Assembly (NCBI GenBank): GCA_043766895.1
Contig: JAYUHQ010000062.1
Span: forward strand, 792 to 64,791
DNA: 64,000 nucleotides
Origin: Aestuariivirga sp.
GTDB lineage: Bacteria > Pseudomonadota > Alphaproteobacteria > Rhizobiales > Aestuariivirgaceae
Reading direction: 5' to 3'
Shown here: positions 31,620-53,559 of the stretch, in pieces
How positions within the stretch are numbered: the stretch's first letter is position 1
How the letters are laid out: each line of letters starts with the position of its first letter
Program-made: the position numbers and the translations under genes
Notes under the pieces: model-generated
Seen by the model: only the letters and a program-made list of their open reading frames with translations
Told to the model about the DNA's origin: nothing
Database searches by the model: none

Positions 31620-31689
31620 CTTAATACTTTCCTCGCAATTGCGCGTGAACGTTACACATGTTAATTATTCGATCAAGGAGTTGACACCC

Positions 31690-32397
31690 ATGCATATCGG
31701 AATTTTGGTGACAAATACGGATCGATCTGATTTTGCAAAGGCGCGAGCAGATGACGGTGAAAAATTTCGAGCCTTGCTGCAACCCTTGCGGCCACATTGG
31801 CAATTCACTGCGGTCCAAGTCAGAGATGGTAAATTTCCAAAAGCAGTTCATGCCTTTGATGGCTATGTTATTACTGGCAGCCCGGCCTCGGCCAATGGCG
31901 GCGAAGCATGGATCGAGAAATTGATGGGCTTCATTAGGGAATTGAACCTTGCTCACATACCAACGGTCGGCATCTGCTTTGGCCACCAGGTGATTGCCCG
32001 TGCGCTTGGTGGCAGCGTTGGCAAGAACCCCGAAGGTTGGGGATTTGGCATTTCGCCCACACATTTCACCGCCCATCAGTCGTGGATGTTGCCCGCCCAA
32101 ACCACGGTGAATCTTTATGCCGCGCACACTGAGCAAGTTATTACGTTGCCTAAAAATGCTGAAGCATTGGGCGGCAGCCCATTTTGCCCAATTGGGTCTT
32201 ACAAAATTGGTGATCACATTTTTACAACGGAATATCACCCAGAAATGACACCCGAATTCATCACGGATCTTTCGCACGAAAAAGAAAACTATATCGGCCA
32301 ACCCATTGCCGAACGTGCGCGCGAACAATTCAAAACTCCCGCTGATGGCAAAATTTTTGCCCAGTGGATGGTTCAGTTTTTTGAATTGCCGCGTTAA
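31690..32397 (+). CDS. Type 1 glutamine amidotransferase (gamma-glutamyl hydrolase-like)
   Basis: ITGSP, GICFGHQ nucleophile and YHPE. AAGGAG RBS before ATG 31690. Confidence 0.9.
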   Translation: MHIGILVTNTDRSDFAKARADDGEKFRALLQPLRPHWQFTAVQVRDGKFPKAVHAFDGYVITGSPASANGGEAWIEKLMGFIRELNLAHIPTVGICFGHQVIARALGGSVGKNPEGWGFGISPTHFTAHQSWMLPAQTTVNLYAAHTEQVITLPKNAEALGGSPFCPIGSYKIGDHIFTTEYHPEMTPEFITDLSHEKENYIGQPIAERAREQFKTPADGKIFAQWMVQFFELPR

Positions 32398-33878
32398 AGC
32401 TGAATCCATGCTGTTTTAAGTTCTGAATATTTATCCAGCGCATGCAATGATTTGTCATGGCCATTGCCGCTTTGTTTCACGCCCCCCAAAGGCACTGTAT
32501 TATCAGCCCCGCCATATGTATTCACATGCACAACACCCGCTTTAATGCCGCGCACCATGCGATGCGCCTTGGAAAGATTTGAAGTCCACACAGCGGAGGC
32601 CAAACCAAACACAGTAGAATTGGCAATGCGCAAAGCATCGTCTTCATCACTAAATTTCATCACCCCCAACACCGGGCCAAACACTTCGTTTTGCGCCAAA
32701 TCCATTTGGGAAGTTACGTTTGAAATGACCGTGGGGGCCATATAAAAGCCGCCTGTATTTTCGAGAATGCGTTGGCCGCCTGTTTCAATTTTTCCGCCTT
32801 CGCTTTGCGCACGCGAAACAAAATCTAAATCCTTTTGCAATTGGTCTAAACTGGTTACGGCGCCTGCTTCGGTGCCAAGGTCAAGTGGATCGCCCACTTT
32901 TATTTTTGCAGAAATGCTCGCAACTTTAGCCACAAATTCGTCGTGGATTTTATCTTCCACCAACAGTCGGGAACCGGCCACACACACTTGGCCAGAGTTG
33001 CGGAATATCCCATAAGCAGAGATTTTAGCGGCAACATCAAGATTGGGTGCATCAGCAAAAACAATGTTGGGAGACTTTCCGCCCAGTTCCAGATAGCAGC
33101 GCTTTAAATTTGACTTGGCAGAATATTCCAGCAATTTGCGCCCCACCATGCCTGAGCCTGTGAAGGCCAAAACATCGATATCCATATGAAGGCCAAGTGC
33201 CTCACCCACCACTGAACCTTTGCCTGTAACCACGTTTAACACGCCATCAGGAAGTCCCGCTTCTGAACACAGCTCTGCCAAACGCAACAAAGACAGAGAC
33301 GCTACTTCAGCTGGCTTCAGAACCACACTGTTGCCGGCTGCAAGTGCTGGCGCTATTTTCCACGAACCAATCATCAATGGAAAATTCCAAGGCACAATTG
33401 CTGCCACAACCCCTATGGGCTCTCGGTGAATAAGCCCAAGAATATTATTCGCGGTGGGTGCAATCTCACCATACACTTTATCAATTGCCTCGGCATAATA
33501 GCGGAATGTTCCGCCAGCACTTCCCGGCTCAGCCTTGATTGCCATAGAAATTTCGGTGCCGTTATCACGCACACCCAAAACCGCCAATTCCAAGGCATGC
33601 TTCTCAATAAGATCTGCAATCCGATGCATCACTTTTTTGCGCTCGGCTGGTGCGGCTTTGGACCATACGCCTGAATCAAAACTTGCGCGTGCTGCCTTCA
33701 CAGCAAGATCAGCATCAACAGCAGTCGCCAGTGAAATCGATGAAAACACTTTGCCATCAATCGGCGACAATACCGCGTGAATGCCACCAGCCTGGGCTTC
33801 CACGTGCTTGCCATTGATGAACAGTTTTTGCGCCGAAACGGGCAGAATGCGAAGCCGATTGATCTCTGATTGAGACAT
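32394..33878 (-). CDS. Aldehyde dehydrogenase (PuuC-like)
   Basis: IVPWNFP, FTGS, LELGGKSPN, GQVC and EVFGP. Start moved to MSQSE. Confidence 0.92.
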   Translation of the reverse strand: MSQSEINRLRILPVSAQKLFINGKHVEAQAGGIHAVLSPIDGKVFSSISLATAVDADLAVKAARASFDSGVWSKAAPAERKKVMHRIADLIEKHALELAVLGVRDNGTEISMAIKAEPGSAGGTFRYYAEAIDKVYGEIAPTANNILGLIHREPIGVVAAIVPWNFPLMIGSWKIAPALAAGNSVVLKPAEVASLSLLRLAELCSEAGLPDGVLNVVTGKGSVVGEALGLHMDIDVLAFTGSGMVGRKLLEYSAKSNLKRCYLELGGKSPNIVFADAPNLDVAAKISAYGIFRNSGQVCVAGSRLLVEDKIHDEFVAKVASISAKIKVGDPLDLGTEAGAVTSLDQLQKDLDFVSRAQSEGGKIETGGQRILENTGGFYMAPTVISNVTSQMDLAQNEVFGPVLGVMKFSDEDDALRIANSTVFGLASAVWTSNLSKAHRMVRGIKAGVVHVNTYGGADNTVPLGGVKQSGNGHDKSLHALDKYSELKTAWIQL

Positions 33879-33892
33879 AGTATTCTCCGAAA

Positions 33893-33928
33893 AAAGGAAA
33901 AAGAGCGACACAGAAGTGCCGCTCTTTT
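33893..33928 (-). terminator. Rho-independent terminator between the APC permease and ALDH genes
   Basis: The - strand reads AAAAGAGCGGCAC-TTCT-GTGTCGCTCTTTT (one G-U pair) followed by a T-rich tract. Confidence 0.65.
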
Positions 33929-33941
33929 TGTTGGTGAGTGG

Positions 33942-35381
33942 TTATGTGTTGCTGCCAAGAGCTTGGAATTTGACAGGATTATTCGTTTCCAAACGGCTGG
34001 CAGAAATAAAGCCCACGATAGCAGCGACGATTACCAACGATGGCAAAATAACACCAAGTGAACCAACAGCGCCCGTTAAATCTCCAAACTTTGCGAAGAT
34101 GTAAACGAACAACGCCGCCATGATCACACCCGCAATGATCGGCAAGACTTTTACCGACAGCGCGTTCTCGCCCATTGCGTCTTTTGCAAAAAAGGCAACG
34201 ACTGAGAAAGATGTAACGGCCATCAAACCCAAAATTCCGAGCGTTCCAAGCTGGGTGAGCCAGGTGAACAACTGTAACACGGGGTCAAGTCCCATTATTG
34301 CAAAGAAGCCAACAACCACGATTGCTAGGATCGTTTGAATGATGGAACCCACATGTGGGCTTTGAAATGTATCATGTGTCACACCAACAGAAGCTGGCAA
34401 CAATCCTTCACGGCCAGCCACATATTTATACCGCGCCACACCATTGTGAAATGCCAGCACCCCAGCAAACAAGCTGGACACGAACAGAAAGCCCATAATG
34501 GTAGGAACTGGCCCGCCAACATAACGCCCTGCAAGATCAAACAGGAATGTTGTTGGATCTTTGAGTGCCTGCAATGTTGGCAACAATTTATCCACGCCTG
34601 CACCAACAGCCATCAACCATGATGTGAGCATATAGAACACACCAATCAGAATGACGGAGTAGTAGGTTGCTTTTGGAACGGTAATATGTGGATCTTTAGC
34701 TTCTTCTGAATAGATTGTTGTGGCTTCAAAACCAATAAATGCCGCAAAGCAGAACAAGATGCCAATGGCGGGCGAACCCATCATTACAGCGCTGGGCGTG
34801 AACGGTGTCAAAGAAAGACCAGAGTCGCCACCCTTAACGAAAATGGCAACATCAAGAATGAGCACAATGAGATATTCGAGGGCGACCAGCGCCATCAAAA
34901 TTTTGGCAGACAACTCTACTTGCCGATAGCCCAGAATGCCCGCAAATGCGATGCCAACAAAGCTCCACACCCACCACGGGAAGTTCAAACCGATGGAAGC
35001 AAATGTTCCTGCTGAAGCAGCGCCAAGCAACCCCAGAATGCCAATCTGCATGGCGTTATAGCTGAAAATTGCAACCATCGCCGATGCGCCGCCGATTTTG
35101 CCGCCAAGCCCGCGCGCGGCAAGTGCATAAAAACCGCCAGCACTTGAAACGTGCCGCGCCATTGCCACGTAACCAACTGCAAAAACCAACAATATTGCGG
35201 TTGCTAATAAAAATGAACCGACAATGCCTGCGCCATTTCCAAGCAACATGCTTATGGGAACGCCGCCGGCAACTGCCGTCAATGGTGCGGCCGCCGAAAT
35301 AACCAAGAACGTAACCGCCCCAACACCAAGACTGTTTTTTCGCAACTGGTTTGCACCAGCTGTAGCTGAAGTATTTGCCAT
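33942..35381 (-). CDS. APC family amino-acid/amine permease
   Basis: SAAAP (TM1), FIGFEATTIYSEEA and about 12 TM segments. Confidence 0.92.
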   Translation of the reverse strand: MANTSATAGANQLRKNSLGVGAVTFLVISAAAPLTAVAGGVPISMLLGNGAGIVGSFLLATAILLVFAVGYVAMARHVSSAGGFYALAARGLGGKIGGASAMVAIFSYNAMQIGILGLLGAASAGTFASIGLNFPWWVWSFVGIAFAGILGYRQVELSAKILMALVALEYLIVLILDVAIFVKGGDSGLSLTPFTPSAVMMGSPAIGILFCFAAFIGFEATTIYSEEAKDPHITVPKATYYSVILIGVFYMLTSWLMAVGAGVDKLLPTLQALKDPTTFLFDLAGRYVGGPVPTIMGFLFVSSLFAGVLAFHNGVARYKYVAGREGLLPASVGVTHDTFQSPHVGSIIQTILAIVVVGFFAIMGLDPVLQLFTWLTQLGTLGILGLMAVTSFSVVAFFAKDAMGENALSVKVLPIIAGVIMAALFVYIFAKFGDLTGAVGSLGVILPSLVIVAAIVGFISASRLETNNPVKFQALGSNT

Positions 35382-35421
35382 AGGTTTCCCCTCCTTAATT
35401 GGCCTTGCCCGATATTATTTT

Positions 35422-35438
35422 GTTTCATTATTTGAACC
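35422..35438. promoter_or_regulatory. Candidate IclR-type operator
   Basis: Palindrome TTCA-N5-TGAA (35424-35436) between the divergent APC and IclR genes. Confidence 0.3.
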
Positions 35439-35521
35439 TTCGGTGCAAATATAGACTTGCAAAAAAATGCGGCGAGTGTCAAGTTATTTTACGTGTTAAG
35501 AAAATTAGGGCTAACCTCTTT

Positions 35522-36289
35522 ATGGGAACAGTCAGTAAAGCATTAGGATTGTTGAATATTTTGGCGGGTACACACGCCCCAAAAGGCTTGACTGAAATTG
35601 CCAAAGCAGCGGGATTCGACAAGGCCACAACGCGTAGACTTTTGGTTGAGCTGAGCAGCAACGGCTATGTTGTGCAAGATTCGGACAGCCGTGATTATGA
35701 GTTGGGGCCGGCGTTGCAAGTATTGGGCAAAACACGTGAAGAGCGGTTTCCGCTCTATCGCACAACATTGCCTTTTGTTCGTGCATTGGCCGAACAGACC
35801 GATGAAACCGTGCACGCAACTGAATACAGTTCCGGGGTGTTGCTTTCGATCTGCATTGAACATTCAACCAAGGCAAACCGCGTGAGTTTGGAACAGGGCC
35901 AAAGATTGCCACTTCATGCCACGGCTTCGGGAATTGCTTTTCTTGCTGCATCTCAACCAGCCTTCGTCGACAGCGTGGCAGGCAAACCATTGGCTCATTT
36001 TACTCCAACCACTTCAACATCACGCGATGCCCTGTTGAAAGTCGTTCAGGAAGCAAAAAAGCGCGGATATTCAATCAGCAATCAATCCCTTGAAGCAGGC
36101 GTAAGCAGCGTTGCTGCTGCAATTTGCATTCAAGTTGGCAAGCCAATTGGCACAATCGCAATTGCGGTTCCAACCTTGCGCATGTCACCAAAGACTATTG
36201 CTGAATTTGGCGCTTTGGTGCGCAAGGCCGCTGACGAAGTTTCTCACCACCTTTCCGGACGCGCAACAAATATGCAAAAATCATCATAA
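35522..36289 (+). CDS. IclR family regulator
   Basis: MGTVSKALGLL, HTH GLTEIAKAAGFDKATTRRLL, PLHATASG and GVSSVAA. Start moved to 35522. Confidence 0.93.
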   Translation: MGTVSKALGLLNILAGTHAPKGLTEIAKAAGFDKATTRRLLVELSSNGYVVQDSDSRDYELGPALQVLGKTREERFPLYRTTLPFVRALAEQTDETVHATEYSSGVLLSICIEHSTKANRVSLEQGQRLPLHATASGIAFLAASQPAFVDSVAGKPLAHFTPTTSTSRDALLKVVQEAKKRGYSISNQSLEAGVSSVAAAICIQVGKPIGTIAIAVPTLRMSPKTIAEFGALVRKAADEVSHHLSGRATNMQKSS

Positions 36290-36299
36290 CAAGGAGCCA

Positions 36300-37547
36300 A
36301 TGATGAGCACTCCACGAATTCTCATAATCGGCACCGGAGACACCAAATCCGATGAACTCACCTTCATGCGTGAATGTGTTTCAACAGCGGGCGGCCATGC
36401 AGTAATGATGGATGTATCCATTCTTGGCGAACCCCAGTTTATACCGCAATACTCCAAACATGATGTGGCCGCGGCTGCCGAAACAACCATTGATGCTGTT
36501 ATCAAATCTGGCGATGAAAACTCGGCAATGGCCATGATGGCAGATGGCGCTTCTAAACTTTCTCGGCATCTCTATGATCAACAGAAGATTGATGCTGTAA
36601 TAATACTCGGCGGATCAATGGGAACTGACTTAGCCCTGGATGTTGCCAATGCATTGCCATTAGGTGTTCCAAAATTTGTTGTTTCGACAATCTCTTTCTC
36701 GCACCTTATTCCGCCTGAACGAATTTCCACTGATTTGATGATGATCCTTTGGGCTGGTGGATTGTATGGCCTTAACAGCATTTGCAAATCGGTTTTAAGT
36801 CAAGCCTGTGGTGCCGTTGTGGGCGCGGCGCGCGCAAGCGTTAAGCCTCAAAACACGCGTCCGGTGATTGGTATGACATCGCTTGGTAAAAGTTGTTTGA
36901 AATATATGGTGCCCCTAAAGCCAGCACTGGAAAAGCGGGGCTATGAAGTGGCCGTGTTTCACACCACCGGCATGGGTGGCCGCGCTTTTGAATCAGTCGC
37001 ATCACAGAAAACTTTTGCAGCAGTGATGGATTTTAGTTTGCAAGAAGTGGTGAACCATGAAAATGGTGTGCTGGCAACATCGTCAGGTTGGGACCGGCTG
37101 GAAAATGCAGGCCGTGTTGCAATCCCACAAATTGTGGCGCCAGGTGCCGTAGACATGGTCGACTTGCCTTCTTGGCTGCCCTTGCCAAAAGAATTCGCAG
37201 ATCGACCTTACCATGCCCATAATCGGCTGATCGGTTCAATCACAACTGATCCTGAGGGCCGCCGAAAAACTGCGCGCACCATTGCCCACAAACTTGAACG
37301 CGCCTTGGGCCCTGTCGCACTCATTCTGCCAACGGGTGGAATTGAAGAATGGGATCAGCAGGGCGAACCCTTGCATGACCCCGACGGATTACACGCTTTT
37401 GTCGAAGCCATGCGCCTTGCGGTAAAAGCGCCGGTGGAACTTCATGAAATTCCAGATCATATCAACAGCCCCGCCTTCGCGGCCAAGGCACTCGAGGTGT
37501 TTGATACCTGGGTGGCGGCGGGAATTATTCCTGCAGGACAGCTATGA
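36300..37547 (+). CDS. Tm-1-like ATP-binding domain protein (UPF0261)
   Basis: IIGTGDTKSDE, LGGSMGT, ALPLGVPK, FHTTGMGGRAFE and PGAVDMV. AAGGAG RBS before ATG 36300. Confidence 0.85.
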   Translation: MMSTPRILIIGTGDTKSDELTFMRECVSTAGGHAVMMDVSILGEPQFIPQYSKHDVAAAAETTIDAVIKSGDENSAMAMMADGASKLSRHLYDQQKIDAVIILGGSMGTDLALDVANALPLGVPKFVVSTISFSHLIPPERISTDLMMILWAGGLYGLNSICKSVLSQACGAVVGAARASVKPQNTRPVIGMTSLGKSCLKYMVPLKPALEKRGYEVAVFHTTGMGGRAFESVASQKTFAAVMDFSLQEVVNHENGVLATSSGWDRLENAGRVAIPQIVAPGAVDMVDLPSWLPLPKEFADRPYHAHNRLIGSITTDPEGRRKTARTIAHKLERALGPVALILPTGGIEEWDQQGEPLHDPDGLHAFVEAMRLAVKAPVELHEIPDHINSPAFAAKALEVFDTWVAAGIIPAGQL

Positions 37548-38215
37548 CAAAACGCGCCCTGATCTTAGATTTTGGCGGTGTCATTACGCGAACACTGTTT
37601 GAAACTCACAGCCTTACCGAAAAATCGCTAGGCTTGAAACCGGGCACCCTTATTTGGCGGGGGCCTTTTGATGTCGCAACTGACCCGTTATGGCAATCTA
37701 TGCAAAATGACGAAATGAGCGAGCGTGATTATTGGATGAGGCGCACGCAAGAAGTGGGAAGCCTTGTTGGTGAAAATTGGACAACGATGGAAACTTTCGT
37801 TCAGCGTGCGCGTGGCGCCGAGCCTGAGTTGGTGTTGCGGCCCGAGGCACGCATTGCCATCGAAACCGCAAAAGCCAATGGCATGCACCTTGCCATTCTT
37901 TCTAATGAATTAGACTTGTTTTACGGTGCAGATTTTCGCAAACGTTTTCCATTGATGGAACTGTTTGATGTGATCGTTGATGCCACCTACACAAAAATTC
38001 TAAAACCTGATCCGCGCAGCTATCGTGCCTGCCTTTCTGAACTTGATATTGACGCAAACGCTTGTGTCTTTGTTGATGATCAAAAGCGAAATGTTGATGG
38101 CGCACGCGCTGTGGGAATTCCCACAATACATTTCGATGTGATGAAACCTGCCCACAGTTTTGCCGCAGCGCTCAACCTGCTCGGTCTCAAATATAAGGAA
38201 CCCGCTCATGCGTAA
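37544..38215 (+). CDS. HAD family hydrolase
   Basis: ILDFGGV, ILSN, KPDP and FVDD motifs. Confidence 0.9.
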   Translation: MTKRALILDFGGVITRTLFETHSLTEKSLGLKPGTLIWRGPFDVATDPLWQSMQNDEMSERDYWMRRTQEVGSLVGENWTTMETFVQRARGAEPELVLRPEARIAIETAKANGMHLAILSNELDLFYGADFRKRFPLMELFDVIVDATYTKILKPDPRSYRACLSELDIDANACVFVDDQKRNVDGARAVGIPTIHFDVMKPAHSFAAALNLLGLKYKEPAHA

Positions 38216-39554
38216 CGCTAATTTCCTCAAAGAAAATAATGCCCGCCACATGTGGCACGCAATGGCCAACGCGGGCGACATGCGGGCAAACCCACCCCAA
38301 ATCATCAACACTGCGAAATTAGCGGAAATTACTGACATTGACGGCCACACGGTTTTAGATGCCGTTGGTGGTTTGTGGAATGTAAATCTTGGCTATTCCT
38401 GTGAGCCAGTCAAAAAAGCCATCCGCGACCAATTGGATTCCCTCCCCTATTATTCAACATTTCGTGGCACCACCAATGCGCCACTCATCGAACTTTCGTA
38501 TGAGTTGGCAGAATTTTTTAAACCTGAAGGCATGACGCGTTCGTTCTTCACTTCCGGTGGATCAGACTCGGTGGAATCGGCGCTGCGTCTGGCTCGGCAA
38601 TATCATAAACTCAAAGGTCAACCTGAACGCACTAAATTCTTCGCTCTCAAAAAAGGTTACCATGGCACTCATTTTGGCGGCGCATCAGTCAATGGCAATG
38701 CCAATTTCCGCCGCGCTTATGAACCTTTGTTGCCCGGTGTGTTTCACTTGCCTGCACCGTGGACCTATCGCAATCCGTTCAACACTACCGATGGCGCAAT
38801 AATCGCGCAAAAAATTGCTGCGCTGTTTGAAGATGAAATTGCTTTTCAAGGTGCGGACACGATTGCGGCTTTCATCATGGAACCTGTTTTAGGCGCAGGT
38901 GGTGTTATTGTGCCCCATGAAAGCTTCATGCCTCTTATGCGGGCGATTTGTGACAAGCACGGCATTCTGATGATTGCCGACGAAGTGATTACAGCTTTTG
39001 GCCGCACCGGCGCGTGGACTGGTTCACGCCTTTGGGGGGTGCAACCTGATATGATCTGCACGGCCAAAGCCATCACCAATGCCTACTATCCTTTCGGTGC
39101 AGTGATGATTCATGAAAAGCTTACTGAAGCCTTTGAAACGTCCAAATCACCTCTTGCATCTATTGGCCATGGCTATACTTATTCAGGCCATCCGGTGGGT
39201 GCTGCTGCTGCGCTTGCAACACTGGCTGAAACCAAACGCCTTAACGTGAAAGATAATGCGGCTGCACGTGGCCATAAATTGTTGGCTGGTCTGGAAAACT
39301 TGAAGGCCAAACATAATGCTGTCGGCGACGTCCGCGGCATTGGTTTGATGTGCGCGCTTGAACTTGTGTCTGATCGTGAAAAAAAATCTGCCCCCGCCAA
39401 AGAAGCCGTGCAGAAGGTTCAAGACATAGCATATAAGGCGGGCGTGATGGTGCGCACTTCCGGGCCGAATATCATTCTATCTCCACCGCTGATCATTACC
39501 GCAAAGGATGTGAACCGCATTCTTTCAGCACTTGATGAGGGGCTTTCTGCGTGA
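38208..39554 (+). CDS. Class III aminotransferase (omega-amine type)
   Basis: DAVGGLWNVNLG, SGGSDSVE, GYHG, DEVITAFGRTG, TAK and HGYTYSGHP. Start moved to 38208. Confidence 0.93.
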   Translation: MRNANFLKENNARHMWHAMANAGDMRANPPQIINTAKLAEITDIDGHTVLDAVGGLWNVNLGYSCEPVKKAIRDQLDSLPYYSTFRGTTNAPLIELSYELAEFFKPEGMTRSFFTSGGSDSVESALRLARQYHKLKGQPERTKFFALKKGYHGTHFGGASVNGNANFRRAYEPLLPGVFHLPAPWTYRNPFNTTDGAIIAQKIAALFEDEIAFQGADTIAAFIMEPVLGAGGVIVPHESFMPLMRAICDKHGILMIADEVITAFGRTGAWTGSRLWGVQPDMICTAKAITNAYYPFGAVMIHEKLTEAFETSKSPLASIGHGYTYSGHPVGAAAALATLAETKRLNVKDNAAARGHKLLAGLENLKAKHNAVGDVRGIGLMCALELVSDREKKSAPAKEAVQKVQDIAYKAGVMVRTSGPNIILSPPLIITAKDVNRILSALDEGLSA

Positions 39555-40831
39555 CAACAAATGCTGAACTTCTCAAACGCCGAGAACGTTTGCTGGGCCC
39601 AAATGTCCGCGTGTTTTATAATGAGCCAGTGCAGCTTGTGCGCGGCCAAGGTGTTTGGGTTTATGATGCTGATGGACGCAAATACCTAGATTGTTACAAC
39701 AACGTGCCGCACGTGGGCCATTGTCATCCTCATGTGGTTGAAGCCATTTGCAAACAGGCCGCAACGTTGAACACCCACACGCGCTATTTGCACGAAGGCA
39801 TATTGAATTATGTTGAGCGATTAACGGCAACGTTTGCTTCTAATATCACCTCGGCAATCATGGTGTGCACAGGCAGCGAAGCCAATGATGTGGCGCTGCG
39901 CATGGCCCAAGCGATCACTGGGAAAACGGGCATCATCGCTTCCAACCACACCTATCACGGCAACACGTCTGCGGTGTCTCAGCTTTCAACCACAAAACCT
40001 CCAATTGGTGGATTTGGTGGCCACATTCGCCATGTCACAACGCCTGACAGTTATCGCCCCAACGGGGGCAATGCAATCGCACACGCCAAAGCCTTCGCAG
40101 ACGAAGTTGAACAGGCCTGCCAGTCGCTCATCGCATCTGGGCATGGCGTTTCTGGCATGATCATTTGCCCTGCCTTTGTGAATGAAGGGTTCCCCGATTT
40201 AGCGGCTGGATTTTTAGACGGTGCCATCGCCGCCGTGCACAAAGCAGGCGGCGTAGTCATTGCTGATGAAGTTCAACCTGGCTTTGGCCGTATTGGCACT
40301 CATTTCTGGGGCCACCAGAAAGCCGGTTTTGCGCCTGATATTGTGACAATGGGTAAGCCCATGGGCAACGGCCATCCGGTTTCTGCCGTGGCAACTTCGC
40401 TTGATATTATGGGCGCATTTCGCAATGCGTTTGGATATTTCAACACCTTCGGCGGCAACCCAGTTTCTTGCGCCGCTGCCAATGCAGTGCTCGATGTTAT
40501 CGAAAACGAACAGCTGCAAAAAAATGCTGAGATCACTGGAAGTTACACGCGTCAGGGTCTTAAAAAACTTGCTGACAAGCACAGCATTATTGGCGATGTG
40601 CGGGGTTCGGGCTTGGCCATTGGCGCTGAGTTGGTATTAGACCGCCAAACGAAAAAACCTGCCAAAGCTGAAGCCGATCGCGTCATAAATCTTATGCGGC
40701 AACATGGCGTGCTGATGGGCGCCAACGGGATTGCCTATAATGTTTTAAAAATTCGCCCGCCCATGCCATTTGGAAAAGCTGAAGCAGATTTAATGCTTGC
40801 TACACTTGACCAGTGCTTGCAGGCATTGTGA
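39551..40831 (+). CDS. Class III PLP enzyme (AGXT2L/phospho-lyase-like or GABA-aminotransferase-like)
   Basis: YLDCYNNVPHVGHCHP, TGSEAND, YHGN, DEVQPGFGRIG, MGKPMGNG and FNTFGGNP. Confidence 0.88.
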   Translation: MTTNAELLKRRERLLGPNVRVFYNEPVQLVRGQGVWVYDADGRKYLDCYNNVPHVGHCHPHVVEAICKQAATLNTHTRYLHEGILNYVERLTATFASNITSAIMVCTGSEANDVALRMAQAITGKTGIIASNHTYHGNTSAVSQLSTTKPPIGGFGGHIRHVTTPDSYRPNGGNAIAHAKAFADEVEQACQSLIASGHGVSGMIICPAFVNEGFPDLAAGFLDGAIAAVHKAGGVVIADEVQPGFGRIGTHFWGHQKAGFAPDIVTMGKPMGNGHPVSAVATSLDIMGAFRNAFGYFNTFGGNPVSCAAANAVLDVIENEQLQKNAEITGSYTRQGLKKLADKHSIIGDVRGSGLAIGAELVLDRQTKKPAKAEADRVINLMRQHGVLMGANGIAYNVLKIRPPMPFGKAEADLMLATLDQCLQAL

Positions 40832-41808
40832 TGATTGCAAACAGGGCCGCTGATCATTGGGACTGCATTATCGGTGCGCCTGAATTTATAATGCAACGCG
40901 AAAATGCTGTTTATAAAATTCAAACCAAAACAGGTTTTGCGGCACTTCGCATTCATCGCCCGGGCTATCACAGCCGCATCGAAATTGAATCAGAACTTCA
41001 ATGGATGGCGCATTTGGCGCAAAGCGGATTGCATGTGCCGGTTCCTTTTCAGACCCGCAGTGGAACTTTTCTCGCTGAAATTACGGACAGCCAGAACCAA
41101 GTTTTTATTCTTGATCTCTTGTCATGGATTGATGGCGAGCCGCTTGGCAAATCTAGAGTGCCGCTCACATTTTCTGGTTCTGAATTAGAACAGATTTTCT
41201 TCGATCTGGGTTACAACATCGCGCTGATGCACCATGTTTCTGATCAATGGGTATCACCTCAGGGATTCCAGCGTCATGCCTTGGATAAGGAGGGGCTGCT
41301 TGGAGAAACCGCGGCATGGGGGAAATTTTGGGATGCATCTTGCCTCGCGCTTGATGAAAGGCAGTTGCTCATAAAAGCACGAAACCAGGCTGCAACAGAA
41401 ATTGATCTGCTGACTGCAAAGGGCGCCGACTATGGGCTTATCCATGCCGATCTGGTGCGCGAAAATATTTTAATCGCATCGGGCAAAACGCGTTTCATCG
41501 ATTTTGACGATGCTGGTTTTGGCTTTCGCATGTTTGATTTGGCAACAGCTTTGGTCAAAAATCGTGAAGAACTGTATTATCGACCGATGAAGGCGGCACT
41601 CATCGCTGGATATAAGTCCAAGAGAAACATCACAAAAGCTGACGAACGCTCAATTGATTTCTTTCTCACCTTGCGTGATTTTGCTTATTTCGGTTGGGCC
41701 GATGCAAGGCGGGAGGAACCCAGCATGGCGCCCCGAATAGCACAAATAAAACAAGACACTCTTGTGGCGGCTCGTGGCTATTTAGATCACTCGTCATTTG
41801 ATGTTTAA
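40831..41808 (+). CDS. APH/homoserine-kinase-II-like phosphotransferase
   Basis: RENAVY, ALRIHRPGY, IHADLVRENIL (Brenner motif) and IDFDDAGFG. Confidence 0.88.
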   Translation: MIANRAADHWDCIIGAPEFIMQRENAVYKIQTKTGFAALRIHRPGYHSRIEIESELQWMAHLAQSGLHVPVPFQTRSGTFLAEITDSQNQVFILDLLSWIDGEPLGKSRVPLTFSGSELEQIFFDLGYNIALMHHVSDQWVSPQGFQRHALDKEGLLGETAAWGKFWDASCLALDERQLLIKARNQAATEIDLLTAKGADYGLIHADLVRENILIASGKTRFIDFDDAGFGFRMFDLATALVKNREELYYRPMKAALIAGYKSKRNITKADERSIDFFLTLRDFAYFGWADARREEPSMAPRIAQIKQDTLVAARGYLDHSSFDV

Positions 41809-42237: not shown

Positions 42238-42253
42238 CGCAATGAACTCCTTG

Positions 42254-42285
42254 ATAGTTACAAAATCAATAGTTACAAACGTAAC
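42254..42285. promoter_or_regulatory. Candidate operator for the hmg MarR regulator
   Basis: ATAGTTACAAA repeated at 42254 and 42269, plus the palindrome GTTAC-AAAC-GTAAC at 42272-42285. Confidence 0.5.
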
Positions 42286-42316
42286 AGATAATGGATTTAG
42301 GACGGGAGTGCCAGAC

Positions 42317-43633
42317 ATGACCCTCAAATATATGCCAGGCTTTGGCAATGATTTTGAAACGGAAACCCTGCCCGGTGCTTTGCCGCAAGGGCAGAATTCG
42401 CCACAGCGCTGCGCATATGGGCTTTATGCTGAACAGCTTTCTGGTTCGCCCTTCACGGCCCCGCGCGGCAGCAACGAACGGTCTTGGCTTTATCGCATTC
42501 GCCCTTCCGTGCGCCACACGGGAAAATTCAAGTCGGTAAACCACACCACTTGGAAATCTGCTCCAAACGTTGATGACCATCAGTTGCCACTTGGCCAATT
42601 GCGTTGGAATCCCGTTCCGATGCCGGCCAAACCCACAACGTTCATCGATGGCATTTGCACAATAACCACAGCAGGCGATGTGAACGGCCAAGCCGGCATG
42701 GCGGCCCATGTTTATGTGGCCAACGCCAATATGGTGGACGAGCATTTCTTCAACGCTGATGGCGAGTTAATGCTTGTGCCCGAAGCGGGTCGCATTCGCG
42801 TTCTGACTGAGATGGGGATGATGGATGTAGAGCCGTCAGAAATTTGCGTCATCCCGCGCGGCATGGTGTTTCGTGTTGAATTGCTTGATGGCTCTGCACG
42901 TGGCTATCTCTGCGAGAATTATGGTGCCAAATTCACCTTGCCAGAGCGCGGCCCCATTGGTGCCAATTGCTTGGCCAATCCGCGTGATTTCAAAACGCCT
43001 GTGGCTTGGTTTGAAGAAAAGGAAACGCCAACGCGGCTTCTCATAAAATGGTGCGGCAAATTTCATGAAACCACTCTGCCCCATTCACCGCTTGATGTGG
43101 TGGCATGGCATGGCAATTATGCGCCCTATAAATATGATCTCCGCACCTTCTCCCCCGTAGGCGCCATTCTTTTTGATCATCCTGATCCTTCGATCTTTAC
43201 AGTGCTCACTGCTCCTTCAGGCGAAGCGGGAACAGCCAATATCGACTTTGTTATTTTCCCGCCGCGCTGGCTGGTGGCTGAACATTCGTTCCGCCCGCCG
43301 TGGTATCATCGCAACATCATGTCAGAGTTTATGGGGCTGATCTATGGTCGCTATGACGCCAAGGAAGAAGGCTTCGTGCCCGGCGGCATGAGCTTGCATA
43401 ATATGATGCTGGCCCATGGGCCTGACGCGCCGGGTTATTGGAAAGCTTCAACTGCTGAACTGAAACCTCATAAGCTTGATCACACAATGGCCTTCATGTT
43501 TGAAACGCGTTTTCCACAACACATCACGCGCTTTGCCGCCGAGTTGGAAACGCTGCAAGATAACTATACTGATTGTTGGTCGGATTTACGCAAACGTTTT
43601 AATGGTACACTTGAGGGGGACTGGAGCGAATGA
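42317..43633 (+). CDS. hmgA: Homogentisate 1,2-dioxygenase
   Basis: [47 protein letters not shown] and [11 protein letters not shown]. Confidence 0.97.
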
Positions 43634-44652
43634 AACTAGCTACACTCAAAAATGGAACTCGCGACGGCAAGTTGGTGATCGTATCAACTGATCTTACGCA
43701 TTATGTCGATGCCAGTTCAATTGCACCAACACTGCAAGCGGCTTTGGATAATTGGAACAAACACAAAGCCGATTTGGAAAACCTCGCAGAATCTCTGCAA
43801 CACGGCTCCATTCCCGTTGAGCGCTTCCACGAACATGAGGCCATGTCGCCTTTGCCCCGCGCCTACCAATGGGCTGATGGTTCGGCTTATGTGAACCATG
43901 TGGAACTGGTGCGCAAAGCCCGTGGTGCGGAATTGCCAGCGAGTTTTTGGACAGATCCGCTGATGTATCAAGGTGGTTCTGATTCATTCATTGGCCCACG
44001 TGATCCAATCATTATGGCCGACGAGGCCTACGGCATCGATATGGAAGGAGAAGTGGCAGTGATTGTGGATGATGTTCCGGCAGGAGCATCGCCCGAAACC
44101 TGCGCGGCTGCTATTCGTCTCATCATGCTAGTGAATGATGTGTCCTTACGCAATCTCATGCCGGCTGAACTTGCTAAAGGTTTTGGCTTTTTTCAATCCA
44201 AACCGTCGTCAGCATTTTCTCCGGTGGCCGTAACACCTGATGAATTGGGCGCAGCTTGGCAAGATGGAAAAGTGCATTTACCGCTGTGGGTTGATTTGAA
44301 CGGCAAGCCCTTTGGTCGCAACCAAGCAGGCGCTGATATGACCTTTGATTTTGGCCAACTCATTGCTCATGCGGCAAAGACACGGCCCCTCTGTGCCGGA
44401 ACAATCATCGGTTCAGGCACCATATCCAATAAAGACAAAGATGGTAGTGCGGGAAAGCCCATCAGCGAAGGCGGGCTTGGCTATTCCTGCATCGCCGAAA
44501 TTCGGATGATTGAAACGATTGCTCACGGCAAGCCATCAACACCCTTTATGAAATTTGGTGATACGGTGCGTATCGAAATGAAAGACGCCAAAGGGCATAC
44601 AATTTTTGGCGCAATTGAACAAACAGCCCAACAGTTAAAACAGGAGGGCTGA
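43630..44652 (+). CDS. Fumarylacetoacetate hydrolase family protein
   Basis: [31 protein letters not shown] and GSGT; sits in the hmgB position. Confidence 0.9.
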
Positions 44653-44654
44653 CC

Positions 44655-45605
44655 ATGGCCAAAGCATTTGCATCACAAGGCGATCTCACCGAAAAGAAAA
44701 TTTCCTTCAGCGAAATCGGCAAGGGCCTCTGGGCTTTCACTGCAGAAGGTGACCCCAACACCGGCGTTATCATCGGCGATGACTCAGTGATGATTGTGGA
44801 TGCGCAAGCCACACCGCGTTTGGCCGCCAAAGTTGTTGAAAAGATTCGCACTGTCACTGATAAGCCGATTAAATATGTGGTGCTGTCGCATTATCATGCC
44901 GTGCGTGTTCTCGGTGCTTCGGCCTATGGCGCCAGCGAAATCATCGCCTTGGAAAAATGCCGCGCAATGGTGGCAGAACGCGGAAAAGAAGATTGGGATT
45001 CAGAGTTTGGCCGTTTTCCGCGTCTCTTCCAAGGCCATGAATCAATCCCTGGCCTGACGTGGCCCACGCAAACATTCACTAATAAAATGACAGTCTATCT
45101 TGGAAAGCGCCGTGTTGATCTGATGCACTTGGGACGCGCCCACACCGCAGGCGATATCGTCGCTTGGGTGCCTGATGAAGGTGTGATGTTTACAGGCGAC
45201 ATTATTGAATATCATTCTGCTTGTTATTGTGGGGATGGACATTTTAATGATTGGAGCAAAACATTAGACGCCATCAAAACCTATCGCGCACGCGCCATTG
45301 CTCCGGGCCGTGGGGATGCACTCGTCGGTGACAAGCTGGTGCATGATGCCATCGAAAACACCCGAGACTTTGTAGAAAGCACCTATCGTCCGGCAGCCCA
45401 AGTTGCTGCGCGCGGCGGTACTTTGAAAGAAGCGTGGGACGCCGTGCGGGCAACCTGTGACTCTAAATTTTCAACCTATGCCATTTATGAACATTGCCTG
45501 CCGTTCAATGTGGCCCGTGCTTATGATGAGGCGCTGGGCATGGATACACCGCGGATCTGGACAGCAGAGCGAGACGTTGCCATGTGGAATGCTTTGCAAG
45601 GTTAA
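44655..45605 (+). CDS. MBL-fold metallo-hydrolase
   Basis: SHYHAVR (variant of HxHxDH), HTAGD, FTGD and PGRG. Confidence 0.88.
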   Translation: MAKAFASQGDLTEKKISFSEIGKGLWAFTAEGDPNTGVIIGDDSVMIVDAQATPRLAAKVVEKIRTVTDKPIKYVVLSHYHAVRVLGASAYGASEIIALEKCRAMVAERGKEDWDSEFGRFPRLFQGHESIPGLTWPTQTFTNKMTVYLGKRRVDLMHLGRAHTAGDIVAWVPDEGVMFTGDIIEYHSACYCGDGHFNDWSKTLDAIKTYRARAIAPGRGDALVGDKLVHDAIENTRDFVESTYRPAAQVAARGGTLKEAWDAVRATCDSKFSTYAIYEHCLPFNVARAYDEALGMDTPRIWTAERDVAMWNALQG

Positions 45606-45610
45606 GCGAA

Positions 45611-47155
45611 ATGCCGCGCTACAATTATGAACCCTTTGCCTATCACACCCCGCCAGAACTTTGCGGTGGCGCAAAATCATCGGCACGGGTTGCAATCATC
45701 GGCGCCGGCCCCGTGGGACTGGCACTCGCGGTTGATCTTGCATTGCAGGGCGTTGCTTCAATTGTTTTGGATGACAATAATGTCGTGTCCCTTGGCAGCC
45801 GGGCAATTTGCTGGGCCAAGCGAACACTTGAAATTTTTGATCGCTTGGGCATCGGCGAACGCATGGTCGCCAAAGGTGTAACGTGGAAAGTGGGCAGATT
45901 ATTCCATGGGGATGAAGAAGTCTGGTCCTTTGATCTGTTGCCCGAAGATGGTCATAAAAATCCTGCGTTTATCAATTTACAGCAATATCACGTGGAACAA
46001 TATTTGGTGGAACGCTGCGCCAACTTTCCAAGCCTGATCGATATTCGCTGGAAAAACAAAGTAGCGGGCCTTACACAATCGCAAAGCACTGCAACTCTGA
46101 ATATCGAGACGCCCGATGGCACCTATAATCTAACAACGGAATATGTGTTGGCCTGCGACGGTGCGCGTTCGCCAACGCGCGCCATGTTGGGTCTCGATTT
46201 TCAGGGAAAGTTTTTCGAAGAGCGGTTCCTGATAGCCGACGTTGAAATGAAAATCGAACAGCCATCAGAACGCTGGTTTTGGTTTGAACCCAAGTTTCAT
46301 GCAGGCCAATCTGCTTTGCTTCACAAACAACCCGACAATATCTATCGCATCGATCTTCAATTGGGGCCAGACGCAGACCCCGAATTGGAGAAGCAACCAG
46401 ACCGCGTCATCCCCCGCATTGAGAAAGCGGTCGGCCACAAAAATTTCGAACTGGATTGGGTTTCCGTTTACACCTTTCAATGCCGCAGGCTTGAACGGTT
46501 TGTCCACAGCCGTGTGATCTTTGCGGGTGACAGCGCCCATGTAGTTTCACCTTTTGGCGCGCGCGGCGGCAATGGCGGTATACAAGACGTTGACAATTTA
46601 GCGTGGAAGCTTGCCGCCGTCATTCACGGGAAAGCCTCCACCAAGCTGCTTGAAAGCTACAATGATGAGCGGGTTTATGCTGCTGATGAAAATATAAAAA
46701 ACTCGTCACGCACGAGCAATTTCATGTCACCCAATTCAAAGGTTGAACATATGTTTCGTGATGAGGTGTTGCAGCTGGCAAGGACAATGCCTTTCGCACG
46801 ACGAATGATTAATTCAGGCCGATTGTCACAACCTTGTTCATTGTCGGGCCTGCCGTTGCAAACAGCAAATGCTCATGCACCCATGCAACCTGGTTCGCCG
46901 TGTTTGGATGCGCCACTTCATCGTGGCTATGTGTTAGATCACCTCGGCGGAACGTTTAAGCTGCTCTGCACTGGTGGCCCACCAAAACAGATTCCAGAAG
47001 GTTTGGCGGTTGTCGTTGGTCAATCGCCTTCCCTCACCGCACGCTATGGCAAAGATTGGACATATCTTATTCGCCCAGATCAACATATCGCTGCCGCGTG
47101 GCAAAATCCTTCCCCGGAAGAAATCAACGCAGCACTGGAGAAGTTCCATGTTTGA
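45611..47155 (+). CDS. FAD-dependent aromatic hydroxylase-family oxidoreductase
   Basis: GAGPVG, CDG and GDSAHVVSPFGARGGNGGIQD. Start moved to 45611. Confidence 0.9.
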   Translation: MPRYNYEPFAYHTPPELCGGAKSSARVAIIGAGPVGLALAVDLALQGVASIVLDDNNVVSLGSRAICWAKRTLEIFDRLGIGERMVAKGVTWKVGRLFHGDEEVWSFDLLPEDGHKNPAFINLQQYHVEQYLVERCANFPSLIDIRWKNKVAGLTQSQSTATLNIETPDGTYNLTTEYVLACDGARSPTRAMLGLDFQGKFFEERFLIADVEMKIEQPSERWFWFEPKFHAGQSALLHKQPDNIYRIDLQLGPDADPELEKQPDRVIPRIEKAVGHKNFELDWVSVYTFQCRRLERFVHSRVIFAGDSAHVVSPFGARGGNGGIQDVDNLAWKLAAVIHGKASTKLLESYNDERVYAADENIKNSSRTSNFMSPNSKVEHMFRDEVLQLARTMPFARRMINSGRLSQPCSLSGLPLQTANAHAPMQPGSPCLDAPLHRGYVLDHLGGTFKLLCTGGPPKQIPEGLAVVVGQSPSLTARYGKDWTYLIRPDQHIAAAWQNPSPEEINAALEKFHV

Positions 47156-47339
47156 TATCAGCCACGATCGCTTGGGAAATCACGGCGACGATTTTTATGA
47201 GGCTCTGATGGCCGCTCACCTTGGTCTTACTGAAAATGAAAGCGCGCGGTTGAATGCGCGTCTTGTTCTGATAATGGCAAATGTCATTGGCGATTTTGAA
47301 CAGCTCAAGCAGATCATAACAAAGGCAAGCGCGCCATGA
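47148..47339 (+). CDS. DUF2783 family small protein
   Basis: DDFYEALMAAHLGLTENESARLNARLVLIMANVIGD. GGAG RBS before ATG 47148. Confidence 0.8.
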   Translation: MFDISHDRLGNHGDDFYEALMAAHLGLTENESARLNARLVLIMANVIGDFEQLKQIITKASAP

Positions 47340-47977
47340 GCGATGTGCTTCTCTATGACTACTGGCGATCGTCAGCAAGCTACCGCGTACGCATTGCCCT
47401 CAATTTAGCCGGCGTTGCATATAAAAGCGTTTCAGTTGATCTTTTGAAACGCGAACATAAGGCCCCTGAGCACCTTGCGCGCAATCCGCAAGGCTTGGTT
47501 CCCGCGCTGTTTATTGATGGTGTAGTGCTTACACAATCTTTGGCCATCATCGAATATCTTGCACAAACGCGCAAAATTTCATGTTTCCCCGCAGACCCCA
47601 TTGCATGTGCACAAGTGCGTTCAATTGCCTACGCAATCGCAATGGATATTCACCCCGTCTGCAATTTAAATGTGGTGGCGCATGTGTTGCAACTCACCAA
47701 TGGCAATGATGAAACAAGATTTGCGTGGATGCAAAAATTCATTGGCGAGGGTCTCGACGCAGTTGAGGCAATGGTACAGAAAACGACAGGCCCGCTATGT
47801 TACAGTGATGAGATAACAATTGCTGATATGTGTTTGATCCCACAAGTTTATAACGCGAAACGCTGGGGTATAGACGTGACCAAATACGCGCGTATCACCA
47901 GCATTGTCGAAGAACTAAAACCCAATGCGGCATTTGTTGCAGCAGAACCAGAGAACGTTAGGCCTCAGGCAAAGTAA
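47336..47977 (+). CDS. maiA: Maleylacetoacetate isomerase (GST zeta)
   Basis: YWRSSASYRVRIALN, NPQGLVP, TQSLAIIEYL and DIHPVCN. Confidence 0.95.
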   Translation: MSDVLLYDYWRSSASYRVRIALNLAGVAYKSVSVDLLKREHKAPEHLARNPQGLVPALFIDGVVLTQSLAIIEYLAQTRKISCFPADPIACAQVRSIAYAIAMDIHPVCNLNVVAHVLQLTNGNDETRFAWMQKFIGEGLDAVEAMVQKTTGPLCYSDEITIADMCLIPQVYNAKRWGIDVTKYARITSIVEELKPNAAFVAAEPENVRPQAK

Positions 47978-48765
47978 CAGCTGACATTTCCGAATGCGCC
48001 AAAATCTGCTTCAATCAGGCAACCATGCGTGGTTTCAATCGGACGAATGAAAGACCCCGAAAGCACCACATCGCCTGCTGAAATACCATCACCATAGTGC
48101 GCAAGCCTGTTGGCCAGCCAAGCAATTCCCAGCATTGGATCATTCAGCACGCCCGCGCCCAATCCAGTTTCCTCAACTTCCCCATCACGCTTGACAATGG
48201 CACCAACCCAACGCAGATCGAAAGACTCCACGCTATGGCGCTGCGCACCAAGCACAATTCCAGCGTTCGCCGCATTGTCAGAAATCGTGTCAAATACAGT
48301 GCGCGACTTTCCCGAGCCGGGATCAACGCGCAAAATTCGAGTGTCGAGTATTTCCAAAGACGGGGCAACCCATTCTGTTGCCGCCAATACGTGGTTCACT
48401 GAAATATTCGGCCCAACAAGCGGGTGTTTCATAATGAACGCTATCTCTGCTTCAATACGTGGCTGAATGAAACGATCAGCTGAAATTGTTGCACCATCTT
48501 CAAAAAACATATCATCGAGCAAAACGCCAGAATCTGGAATATCGATATTCAAAGCTGATTGCATGGCCTTGGATGTAAGTCCAATTTTCCAACCCTTTAC
48601 AGTTCTTCCGTCCGTTATCTTTTTTTTCACCCATGCCGCTTGAATTGCATAAGCATCATCCATTGCGATAGTGGGATATTGCAAACTCAATAAGTCAATT
48701 TGCTTGCGGGTTTTTTCAGCGCGATCAAGTTGGGCTGCCGCGGCAGAAATTTCTTCAGGCTTCAT
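47965..48765 (-). CDS. hpaH: 2-oxo-hept-4-ene-1,7-dioate hydratase
   Basis: KIGLTSKAMQ, PRIEAEIAF, DTISDNAANAG and LSGSF. Confidence 0.93.
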   Translation of the reverse strand: MKPEEISAAAAQLDRAEKTRKQIDLLSLQYPTIAMDDAYAIQAAWVKKKITDGRTVKGWKIGLTSKAMQSALNIDIPDSGVLLDDMFFEDGATISADRFIQPRIEAEIAFIMKHPLVGPNISVNHVLAATEWVAPSLEILDTRILRVDPGSGKSRTVFDTISDNAANAGIVLGAQRHSVESFDLRWVGAIVKRDGEVEETGLGAGVLNDPMLGIAWLANRLAHYGDGISAGDVVLSGSFIRPIETTHGCLIEADFGAFGNVSCYFA

Positions 48766-49624
48766 CTTCAATTCCATTGTGTAAAATGCCTAAGCCATCT
48801 GCTTCAACTTCAACCACGTCACCTGGCTTCAACCAAATCGGTGGATCAAATCGAGCCCCTGCCCCGGTTGGAGTACCACAAACTATAATATCGCCAGCCA
48901 CCAACGTCGTGAACGTTGAAACATAATTGATGATCTTGCTGAATGAAAAGATCATCCGCGAAGTTCGATCGAGTTGGCGCACCGCCCCATTGACGCGGGT
49001 TGTAATTTGAATATCAAAAAGTTGGCTTTCATCCGTATACGGAACAAGCCAAGGCCCCATCGAGCCTGATCGATCAAAATTCTTTCCCTGTGTTACATTG
49101 AATTTTGCATGCCTAACCCAATCGCGCAATGTGCCCTCGTTGCATAGAGTAATTGCCGCAATATGCAAAAGCGATTGGGCTTCAGGTATGCGTCTGCCAC
49201 CTTTACCAATAACAATTGCTATTTCACCTTCATAATCAAGCTGCACCGACTCTGGTGGCCGTTGAAGTGGTTGCTTGTGGCCCGTAAAAGACCGCGCAAA
49301 GCGAATAAACAGCGATGGATTGGTTGGCGCTGCTTGCCCATCTTTATATTCTTCATTGCGGTCTGGAAAATTTACGCCAACGCAAATAATTTTCTCTGGC
49401 GTCGCCAACGGTATTTCAAATTTAATGTCCGACACTGAAAAATCAACAGGCAAAGTCGCTGCACGTTTTGCAAGAGACGTTAATGCCCCAGCTTTAACCA
49501 CTGACATAAGATCGGGAAATTCTGTCGCAAAGTGCTCTGATAGGTCCACAATGCCATCGCCGACAAGCAGTCCATAACCAAGCTTTTCTTGACGTGTGAA
49601 AGATACAAATTTGGGAGCAGCCAT
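48755..49624 (-). CDS. FAH-family protein (HpaG-like decarboxylase/isomerase)
   Basis: KIICVGVN, LDYEGE, NEGTLRDW, GKNF and CGTP. AAGGA RBS before ATG 49624. Confidence 0.85.
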   Translation of the reverse strand: MAAPKFVSFTRQEKLGYGLLVGDGIVDLSEHFATEFPDLMSVVKAGALTSLAKRAATLPVDFSVSDIKFEIPLATPEKIICVGVNFPDRNEEYKDGQAAPTNPSLFIRFARSFTGHKQPLQRPPESVQLDYEGEIAIVIGKGGRRIPEAQSLLHIAAITLCNEGTLRDWVRHAKFNVTQGKNFDRSGSMGPWLVPYTDESQLFDIQITTRVNGAVRQLDRTSRMIFSFSKIINYVSTFTTLVAGDIIVCGTPTGAGARFDPPIWLKPGDVVEVEADGLGILHNGIEDEA

Positions 49625-49625
49625 T

Positions 49626-51038: not shown

Positions 51039-51049
51039 TTTTCATTACC

Positions 51050-52030: not shown

Positions 52031-52033
52031 GGC

Positions 52034-53548: not shown

Positions 53549-53559
53549 AGATGTGCCTC

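Follow-up and report, generated by a model that had tools for sequence, protein, structure and literature searches.

A predicted amino-alcohol kinase and phospho-lyase pair in an aromatic-catabolism island of Aestuariivirga sp., with phenolic beta-hydroxy amines as possible substrates

Deamination by a kinase followed by a phospho-lyase is known for ethanolamine, aminopropanol and hydroxylysine, and the classical routes of this kind for ethanolamine and aminopropanol are those of Erwinia and Pseudomonas. Here, a putative pair consisting of a phospho-lyase homologue dependent on pyridoxal phosphate (PLP) and an APH-fold kinase was analyzed computationally in a stretch of 64,000 nucleotides from Aestuariivirga sp. 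(contig JAYUHQ010000062.1 of assembly GCA_043766895.1), referred to below as the window. The assignment of the two predicted enzyme families and their conserved linkage rest on homology, and that of the probable aromatic substrate on gene context.

The human enzymes ETNPPL (AGXT2L1) and PHYKPL (AGXT2L2) and the hydroxylysine kinase HYKK were reportedly described by Veiga-da-Cunha et al. in 2012 (J Biol Chem 287:7246; cited in PMC8154272). The window lyase belongs to the same clade (6TOR, 1.5e-112) and the chemistry would be alike, in that the hydroxyl neighboring a terminal CH2-NH2 group is phosphorylated by an APH-fold kinase and lost as phosphate in a PLP-dependent 1,2-elimination that also yields aldehyde and ammonia. 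Unlike the human system, the window pair is bacterial and operonic, is joined to predicted transaminase, phenol kinase and phosphatase genes, and has hydroxyphenyl as the proposed R group in place of H or the lysine chain. A1RDF1, the O-phosphoethanolamine phospho-lyase of Arthrobacter aurescens TC1 (PDB 5G4I/5G4J), matches the window lyase over its full length at 370 bits, with the lysine and motifs in common; it is said to have been characterized, by Cuetos et al. in 2016, on phosphoethanolamine only. In Mycobacterium smegmatis, an (S)-1-amino-2-propanol kinase and a phospho-lyase reportedly belong to the aminoacetone-utilization microcompartment, as described by Mallette and Kimber in 2018 (cited in PMC8007038). 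This is likewise a bacterial catabolic kinase and phospho-lyase pair, whereas the window has neither microcompartment genes nor an amino-ketone reductase, its surroundings are aromatic, and its kinase is a distant match to 6EF6, which we take to be the (S)-1-amino-2-propanol kinase of M. smegmatis.

An octopamine hydro-lyase (EC 4.2.1.87) of Pseudomonas aeruginosa, attributed to Cuskey et al. in 1987, is said to dehydrate its substrate directly without ATP, and we know of no gene assigned to it. The net conversion proposed for the window is the same, namely octopamine to 4-hydroxyphenylacetaldehyde and ammonia, leading into the hydroxyphenylacetate pathway; unlike the hydro-lyase, the window route would spend one ATP and use phosphate as the leaving group. 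A search of the available literature library for this enzyme, and for any link between octopamine or noradrenaline and a phospho-lyase or kinase, returned nothing, and no paper in that library reports the use proposed here.

The lyase-kinase pair and its linkage

The pair belongs to a plus-strand operon in which five genes follow an IclR-family regulator without gaps.

35399..36289, + strand: IclR-family regulator heading the operon (PF09339 and PF01614; the true start is probably downstream of 35399)
36300..37547, + strand: UPF0261/MarK-family ATP-dependent kinase, proposed to act on a phenolic hydroxyl (PDB 9MPY, 4e-45)
37544..38215, + strand: HAD-IA phosphatase, proposed to remove an aryl phosphate (PF00702, 2.6e-16; TIGR01509)
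38208..39554, + strand: omega-amine:pyruvate-type aminotransferase (PF00202, 7.6e-95; NF005683, 740 bits)
39551..40831, + strand: PLP-dependent phospho-lyase homologue of class III aminotransferase fold, ETNPPL/A1RDF1 clade (PF00202, 6.2e-75)
40831..41808, + strand: APH-fold small-molecule kinase, proposed to act on the beta-hydroxyl of an amino-alcohol (PF01636, 1.5e-28)

The initial annotation had placed at these positions an aminotransferase gene followed by an AGXT2L-like class III gene and an APH-type kinase gene, the latter two joined by a TGATG overlap, which coordinates and family matches confirm. The last three genes are translationally coupled. The GTG start of the lyase homologue overlaps the aminotransferase stop as GTGA (39551-39554), and the kinase ATG at 40831 has one base in common with the lyase TGA (40829-40831), giving TGATG; alternative in-frame starts of the kinase are GTG at 40813 and GTG at 40828. 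Upstream, the HAD gene overlaps the genes on both of its sides, and the likely start of the aminotransferase, an ATG at 38208 after an AAGGA ribosome site, overlaps the HAD stop codon (38213-38215). A promoter and terminator scan of 35200-42400 gave sites no more numerous than in shuffled sequence.

Among solved structures, the lyase homologue matches human ETNPPL (6TOR, 380 bits, 1.5e-112) and A1RDF1 (5G4I, 370 bits, 2.1e-109) best and dialkylglycine decarboxylase next (187 bits, 8.8e-54); it scores nearer to the characterized phospho-lyases than to any transaminase, decarboxylase or racemase in this set. Its Schiff-base lysine (Lys269) lies in the segment TMGKPMGNGHP and is aligned with the same residue in both 6TOR and 5G4I. 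Two motifs, NNVxHVGH and NxxxR[YF]L, also occur in the homologue and both solved lyases; they are invariant in 10 orthologues and represent a candidate phosphate site. The best NCBIfam models, NF004799 and NF004800, correspond to the C-terminal halves of fused proteins of about 1000 residues. By these matches, the second class III protein of the operon is a phospho-lyase homologue and not a generic transaminase, and the source genome has no second member of the clade. All substrates of this clade known to us have the form H2N-CH2-CH(OPO3)-R.

In the kinase, the catalytic loop HxDxxxxN (GLIHADLVRENIL) and the IDFDD metal site are intact and align with 6EF6, which is the best structural match (126 bits, E 4e-36 to 2e-35), followed at a distance by amicoumacin kinase (3e-12) and homoserine kinase (2e-6). 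The N-terminal parts of the fused-protein models NF004799 and NF004800 are matched weakly. Homoserine, aminoglycoside or protein kinase identities were rejected, the respective NCBIfam models scoring far under their cut-offs.

Conservation of the pair was followed in 80 loci from a scan of species-representative genomes, in which the lyase is 59-86% identical to that of the window and the window proteins were compared by tblastn. A kinase homologue lies directly downstream of the lyase homologue in 74 of these loci in other genomes, and the pairing is therefore not a matter of chance. In a quick tree, the orthologue group was split from three paralogues with 97% SH-aLRT. The paralogues occupy other gene settings, so the family has evidently diversified by substrate. 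Two of them are from Sinorhizobium meliloti, where a separate kinase-then-lyase pair on pSymA (L082, 4218-8254) and a kinase-lyase fusion of 1008 residues on pSymB (L084, 5273-8299) each adjoin an SDR gene and an ABC transporter. The third, on the Klebsiella pneumoniae plasmid NZ_LR890649 (L083, about 1860-9170), is a kinase-then-lyase unit accompanied by genes for a GntR regulator, an ABC transporter of Lys/Arg/Orn type and an EamA exporter. It is bracketed by IS1 copies, its lyase is of another clade (46% identical), and it has the appearance of a mobile unit for hydroxylysine-type catabolism carried on clinical plasmids. The SDR genes beside the S. meliloti paralogues are reminiscent of how the mycobacterial aminoacetone pathway employs an amino-ketone reductase.

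Homology and conserved linkage strongly support the phosphorylate-then-eliminate core of the initial annotation, in which a kinase and an AGXT2L-type phospho-lyase act on a vicinal amino-alcohol. It is very likely from these comparisons that the pair constitutes a working amino-alcohol kinase and phospho-lyase.

Aromatic gene context and a possible route for phenolic beta-hydroxy amines

The genes surrounding the operon are listed below in their order along the window, the permease being divergent from the IclR-headed operon and the homogentisate operon lying downstream of the lyase-kinase operon.

28010-28975, - strand: AraC-type regulator resembling E. coli FeaR (175 bits, just under the cut-off of 199)
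29060-32409: gamma-glutamylation (GS-like) and P450 genes
32394..33911, - strand: aldehyde dehydrogenase (ALDH), proposed to oxidize (di)hydroxyphenylacetaldehyde (PF00171, 8.7e-159)
33942..35381, - strand: APC-family permease, proposed amine importer (PF13520 and PF00324)
42242..47977, + strand: homogentisate operon of hmgA, FAH, MBL-fold protein, FAD monooxygenase and maiA (TIGR01015, 704 bits; TIGR01262, 239 bits; NF006002, 742 bits)
47965..53946, - strand: homoprotocatechuate operon of hpaH, hpaG-like gene, DOPA/tyrosine decarboxylase, hpaD, hpaE and hpaF (TIGR02312, TIGR02295 and TIGR02299 above cut-offs)
49626-51038, - strand: the DOPA/tyrosine decarboxylase homologue, between the hpaG-like gene and hpaD (7XIN, 1.4e-113)
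54054-54542, + strand: hpaR

Orthologues of at least one of the ALDH, aminotransferase, UPF0261 and HAD proteins, referred to as the module, occur within 10 kb of the pair in 48 of the 80 loci, and 27 of these 48 have hpa, hmg, P450 or decarboxylase genes as well. Counted singly over all 80 loci, orthologues of the aminotransferase and the ALDH are found in 41 each, of the HAD protein in 27 and of the permease in 20. The closest structures of the aminotransferase are the amine transaminases 6S54 and 5LH9. Those of the ALDH are KauB (6B4R) and 5IUU, the latter presumably AldA, an indole-3-acetaldehyde dehydrogenase; the top model of the window ALDH is PuuC, with a score under the model cut-off. 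The gene order of the window is kept in Rhizobium, Ensifer, Shinella and Mesorhizobium, and the IclR regulator has the same position in Rhizobium, Ensifer and Mesorhizobium loci. The order is rearranged in Rhodobacterales, where ALDH-lyase-kinase-UPF0261 run on the strand opposite to the aminotransferase and IclR genes.

Homoprotocatechuate genes (HpaE, HpaD, HpaG-like and HpaH) touch the module in 23 loci and adjoin it in three gene orders, those of Rhizobiaceae, Mesorhizobium and Rhodobacterales. For instance, the Rhizobium leguminosarum plasmid NZ_CP030763 carries eight module genes (ALDH, permease, IclR, Tm-1-like, HAD, two 'aminotransferases' and phosphotransferase, in this order) between hpaB-hpaC and hpaR-hpaF-hpaE-hpaD-gabD-FAH-hpaH-hpaI, the permease being annotated there as an APC family permease. 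Other loci show P450/GS-like genes, hmgA/maiA or a decarboxylase by the module. In the window, the decarboxylase ties L-DOPA or tyrosine directly to the amine route. The context points to products of the hydroxyphenylacetaldehyde/hydroxyphenylacetate type.

A phenolic substrate is also suggested by the UPF0261 protein. MarK of Novosphingobium aromaticivorans, a UPF0261 protein described in a paper from 2025, uses ATP to phosphorylate p-hydroxyphenyl ketones and aldehydes on their phenolic hydroxyl, and a phosphatase acts at a later step of its pathway (PMC12624787). The window protein matches the MarK structure 9MPY at 4e-45 with about one-third identity. Among 46 orthologues drawn from loci with the module, no or almost no variation is seen at the ATP lysine of MarK (K16) and at its phenol contacts (G195, H219 and H304), and the ketone-binding His348 is always Trp and Ile285 always Asp. 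Thus, the MarK/AcvF acetovanillone pathway (PMC12624787) and the window would both pair a UPF0261 phenol kinase with a later phosphatase, the ATP and phenol contacts being kept; the window differs in its partners, which are amine-handling enzymes, in the two substituted residues and in the lack of AcvCDE, no carboxylase genes of the acvCDE type being found in it. Since His348 is replaced by Trp and carboxylase genes are missing from the window, its UPF0261 protein belongs to a different branch of the family and is not an acetovanillone kinase; we infer that it may be a phenol kinase for a ring with a different, probably cationic, side chain.

Co-occurrence of the two kinds of gene was sampled in an even set of 300 Alphaproteobacteria, taking a lyase of 59% identity or more as an orthologue. 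The UPF0261 orthologue was present in 10 genomes and the lyase orthologue in three, all of them among the 10. The hypergeometric chance of this is 2.7e-5, or about 1e-3 if two genomes of the same genus count once, figures that make the association look stronger than it is, as kindred genomes do not count independently. Moreover, four of the five genomes with a stand-alone pair have a UPF0261 orthologue elsewhere in the genome. The lyase orthologue is absent from six of nine sampled UPF0261-positive genomes, whose loci read ALDH-IclR-UPF0261-HAD-aminotransferase without the pair, and the pair therefore represents an optional cassette on a more widespread core.

In the proposed route, the APH-fold kinase would transfer a phosphate from ATP to the benzylic beta-hydroxyl of an arylethanolamine, e.g., octopamine or noradrenaline, both of which fit the H2N-CH2-CH(OPO3)-R form with R being hydroxyphenyl. 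The PLP phospho-lyase would then form an external aldimine, take the alpha-proton and expel phosphate, and hydrolysis of the resulting enamine would release 4-hydroxy- or 3,4-dihydroxy-phenylacetaldehyde and ammonia. The upstream omega-aminotransferase, for which deamination of non-hydroxylated amines of the tyramine/dopamine type is proposed, would yield the same aldehydes from tyramine and dopamine. Transamination of octopamine-type amines would give a mandelaldehyde, a compound that leads into neither the hpa nor the hmg pathway. An aminotransferase and a lyase of one fold may thus stand side by side because both would yield the same arylacetaldehyde, and the cassette would be dispensable where phenylethylamines alone are used. 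The divergent ALDH would oxidize the aldehydes to 4-hydroxyphenylacetate or homoprotocatechuate, which would enter the adjacent homogentisate or hpa meta-cleavage pathways, and the ring hydroxyl would probably be phosphorylated by the MarK-type kinase and freed again later on by the HAD phosphatase.

On balance, we favor this full model, with a phenolic beta-hydroxy amine of the octopamine/noradrenaline type as the substrate, though with modest confidence. Among the substrates offered by the initial annotation, an octopamine-like amine gained support from the MarK-type kinase, the aryl-aldehyde-type ALDH, the hpa/hmg genes, the decarboxylase and the FeaR-like regulator; hydroxylysine and a hydroxylated polyamine found no supporting context.

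It may also be, although this extension is doubtful, that the whole pathway runs on ring-phosphorylated intermediates and that the true lyase substrate is a bis-phosphate. The MarK-type kinase would first mask the phenolic hydroxyl, the APH kinase, phospho-lyase, transaminase and ALDH would take O4-phospho compounds as substrates, and removal of the mask from the final product would fall to the HAD phosphatase. Such masking would prevent oxidation and the loss of phosphate from the benzylic ester through a quinone methide.

Alternative substrates

Several findings weigh against a phenolic beta-hydroxy amine as the substrate. The pair has no module gene within 10 kb in 32 of the 80 loci, six of them short contigs, and 26 long loci hold it among housekeeping genes (NAPRTase, nicotinamidase and ArfB), neighbors that are uninformative on function. 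Module-linked and stand-alone lyases are interspersed in the quick tree, and therefore no sequence signature for an aromatic substrate was found. The genomes behind the co-occurrence described above are related to each other and represent few independent events, one genus accounting for two of the three positives. Besides, the nearest characterized lyases act on phosphoethanolamine, the closest solved kinase is 6EF6, and the nearest characterized kinase presumably acts on 1-amino-2-propanol; with small aliphatics as the substrates of its nearest characterized relatives, the window pair may possibly act on a small aliphatic amino-alcohol too.

One rival reading is a general cassette for a small amino-alcohol, in which an ethanolamine or 1-amino-2-propanol kinase and an O-phospho-amino-alcohol phospho-lyase would produce acetaldehyde or propionaldehyde, and in which the place of the pair in an aromatic-amine operon would be incidental or would serve nitrogen scavenging. 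The nearest solved lyases and kinase and the stand-alone pairs in the 26 long loci speak for it, and an APC permease and an ALDH would suit ethanolamine use as well. Nevertheless, the orthologue group is nested within genomes carrying the MarK-type kinase, and the pair is embedded in hpa clusters in three gene orders. The kinase reaches 126 bits against 6EF6, and about half of the lyase residues, by eye, are common to the phosphoethanolamine lyases, which leaves room for another substrate. The small amino-alcohol cassette is thus considered unlikely.

A further possibility is that a beta-hydroxy amine is made in the cell from tyramine by the gamma-glutamylation/P450 genes, the kinase and lyase being obligatory late steps of tyramine breakdown. 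P450 and GS-like orthologues are near the module in the window and in six other loci (L015, L025, L042, L076, L103 and L105), and Mesorhizobium loci (L035, L038, L039, L041 and L044, at about 3050-4250 in each) have a different P450, 21-22% identical to that of the window, between the ALDH and the permease. Against this, the P450 orthologue is found in one of five genomes with the full module, and direct deamination of tyramine is within reach of the omega-aminotransferase. Ring hydroxylation would be an equally plausible role for the P450, because no HpaB homologue was found in the source genome (94.5% complete) with a query from the R. leguminosarum cluster. Although that genome has the complete hpaDEFGH set, ring 3-hydroxylation, if needed, must then be carried out by another enzyme, or catechol amines alone must enter the hpa branch. 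The intracellular route from tyramine is therefore quite improbable. The initial annotation had suggested the nearby P450 as the maker of the substrate, a role that its presence in one of five full-module genomes does not bear out in general and that was rejected for an obligate supplier; in the source genome itself, the P450 might nevertheless have this role.

It is highly improbable that the pair acts on 5-hydroxylysine or a hydroxylated polyamine as in the mammalian HYKK/PHYKPL route. Mammals use the same two enzyme families, and the top model of the ALDH is the below-cut-off PuuC. However, the pair shows no linkage to genes for lysine or polyamines, and the Lys/Arg/Orn ABC transporter sits by the 46% identical lyase of a different clade on Klebsiella plasmids; hydroxylysine was rejected on these grounds.

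There is likewise very little to favor a transaminase or racemase acting on a phosphorylated phenolic amine, with an unrelated target for the APH kinase: the class III fold hosts several reaction types, with decarboxylases and racemases among the structure matches, and the other kinase of the operon (UPF0261) could supply the phosphate ester, but the sequence is well inside the phospho-lyase clade and the tight linkage mirrors the paralogous kinase-lyase pairs and the fusions, forms that NF004799 and NF004800 describe.

Flanking genes and implications

In the homogentisate operon, the FAD monooxygenase and the MBL-fold protein occupy 44655-47155, and the monooxygenase, which scores 742 bits with NF006002, has no solved structure at E<=1e-40. 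To our knowledge, the gene for the hydroxylation of hydroxyphenylacetate to homogentisate is poorly defined. The monooxygenase, encoded together with hmgA, FAH and maiA, is a candidate for this hydroxylase, with 4- or 3-hydroxyphenylacetate as the compound converted to homogentisate. Orthologues of the decarboxylase also lie beside the module in L010, L012, L026 and L045. The FeaR-like regulator adjoins the GS-like/P450 genes; together with IclR and HpaR, and possibly others, it brings the number of separate regulators in the island to three or four.

If the pair acts on phenolic beta-hydroxy amines, a known two-step chemistry would be extended to a new substrate class, the neurotransmitter-type amines (octopamine, noradrenaline and related plant and algal amines), and a candidate gene pair would be available for a bacterial conversion known since the 1980s without a gene. 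There would also be reason to drop the annotations 'aspartate aminotransferase family protein' and 'phosphotransferase' for the two proteins, and an uncharacterized branch of the UPF0261 phenol-kinase family would gain a natural context and a role. Should the lyase substrate be a bis-phosphate, the pathway would represent a protecting-group strategy in catabolism and a genetic answer for the step from octopamine to 4-hydroxyphenylacetaldehyde. If its substrates are phenolic beta-hydroxy amines, the pair would also explain how phenylethylamines and phenylethanolamines alike could be brought into one hydroxyphenylacetate funnel in rhizobia and roseobacters.

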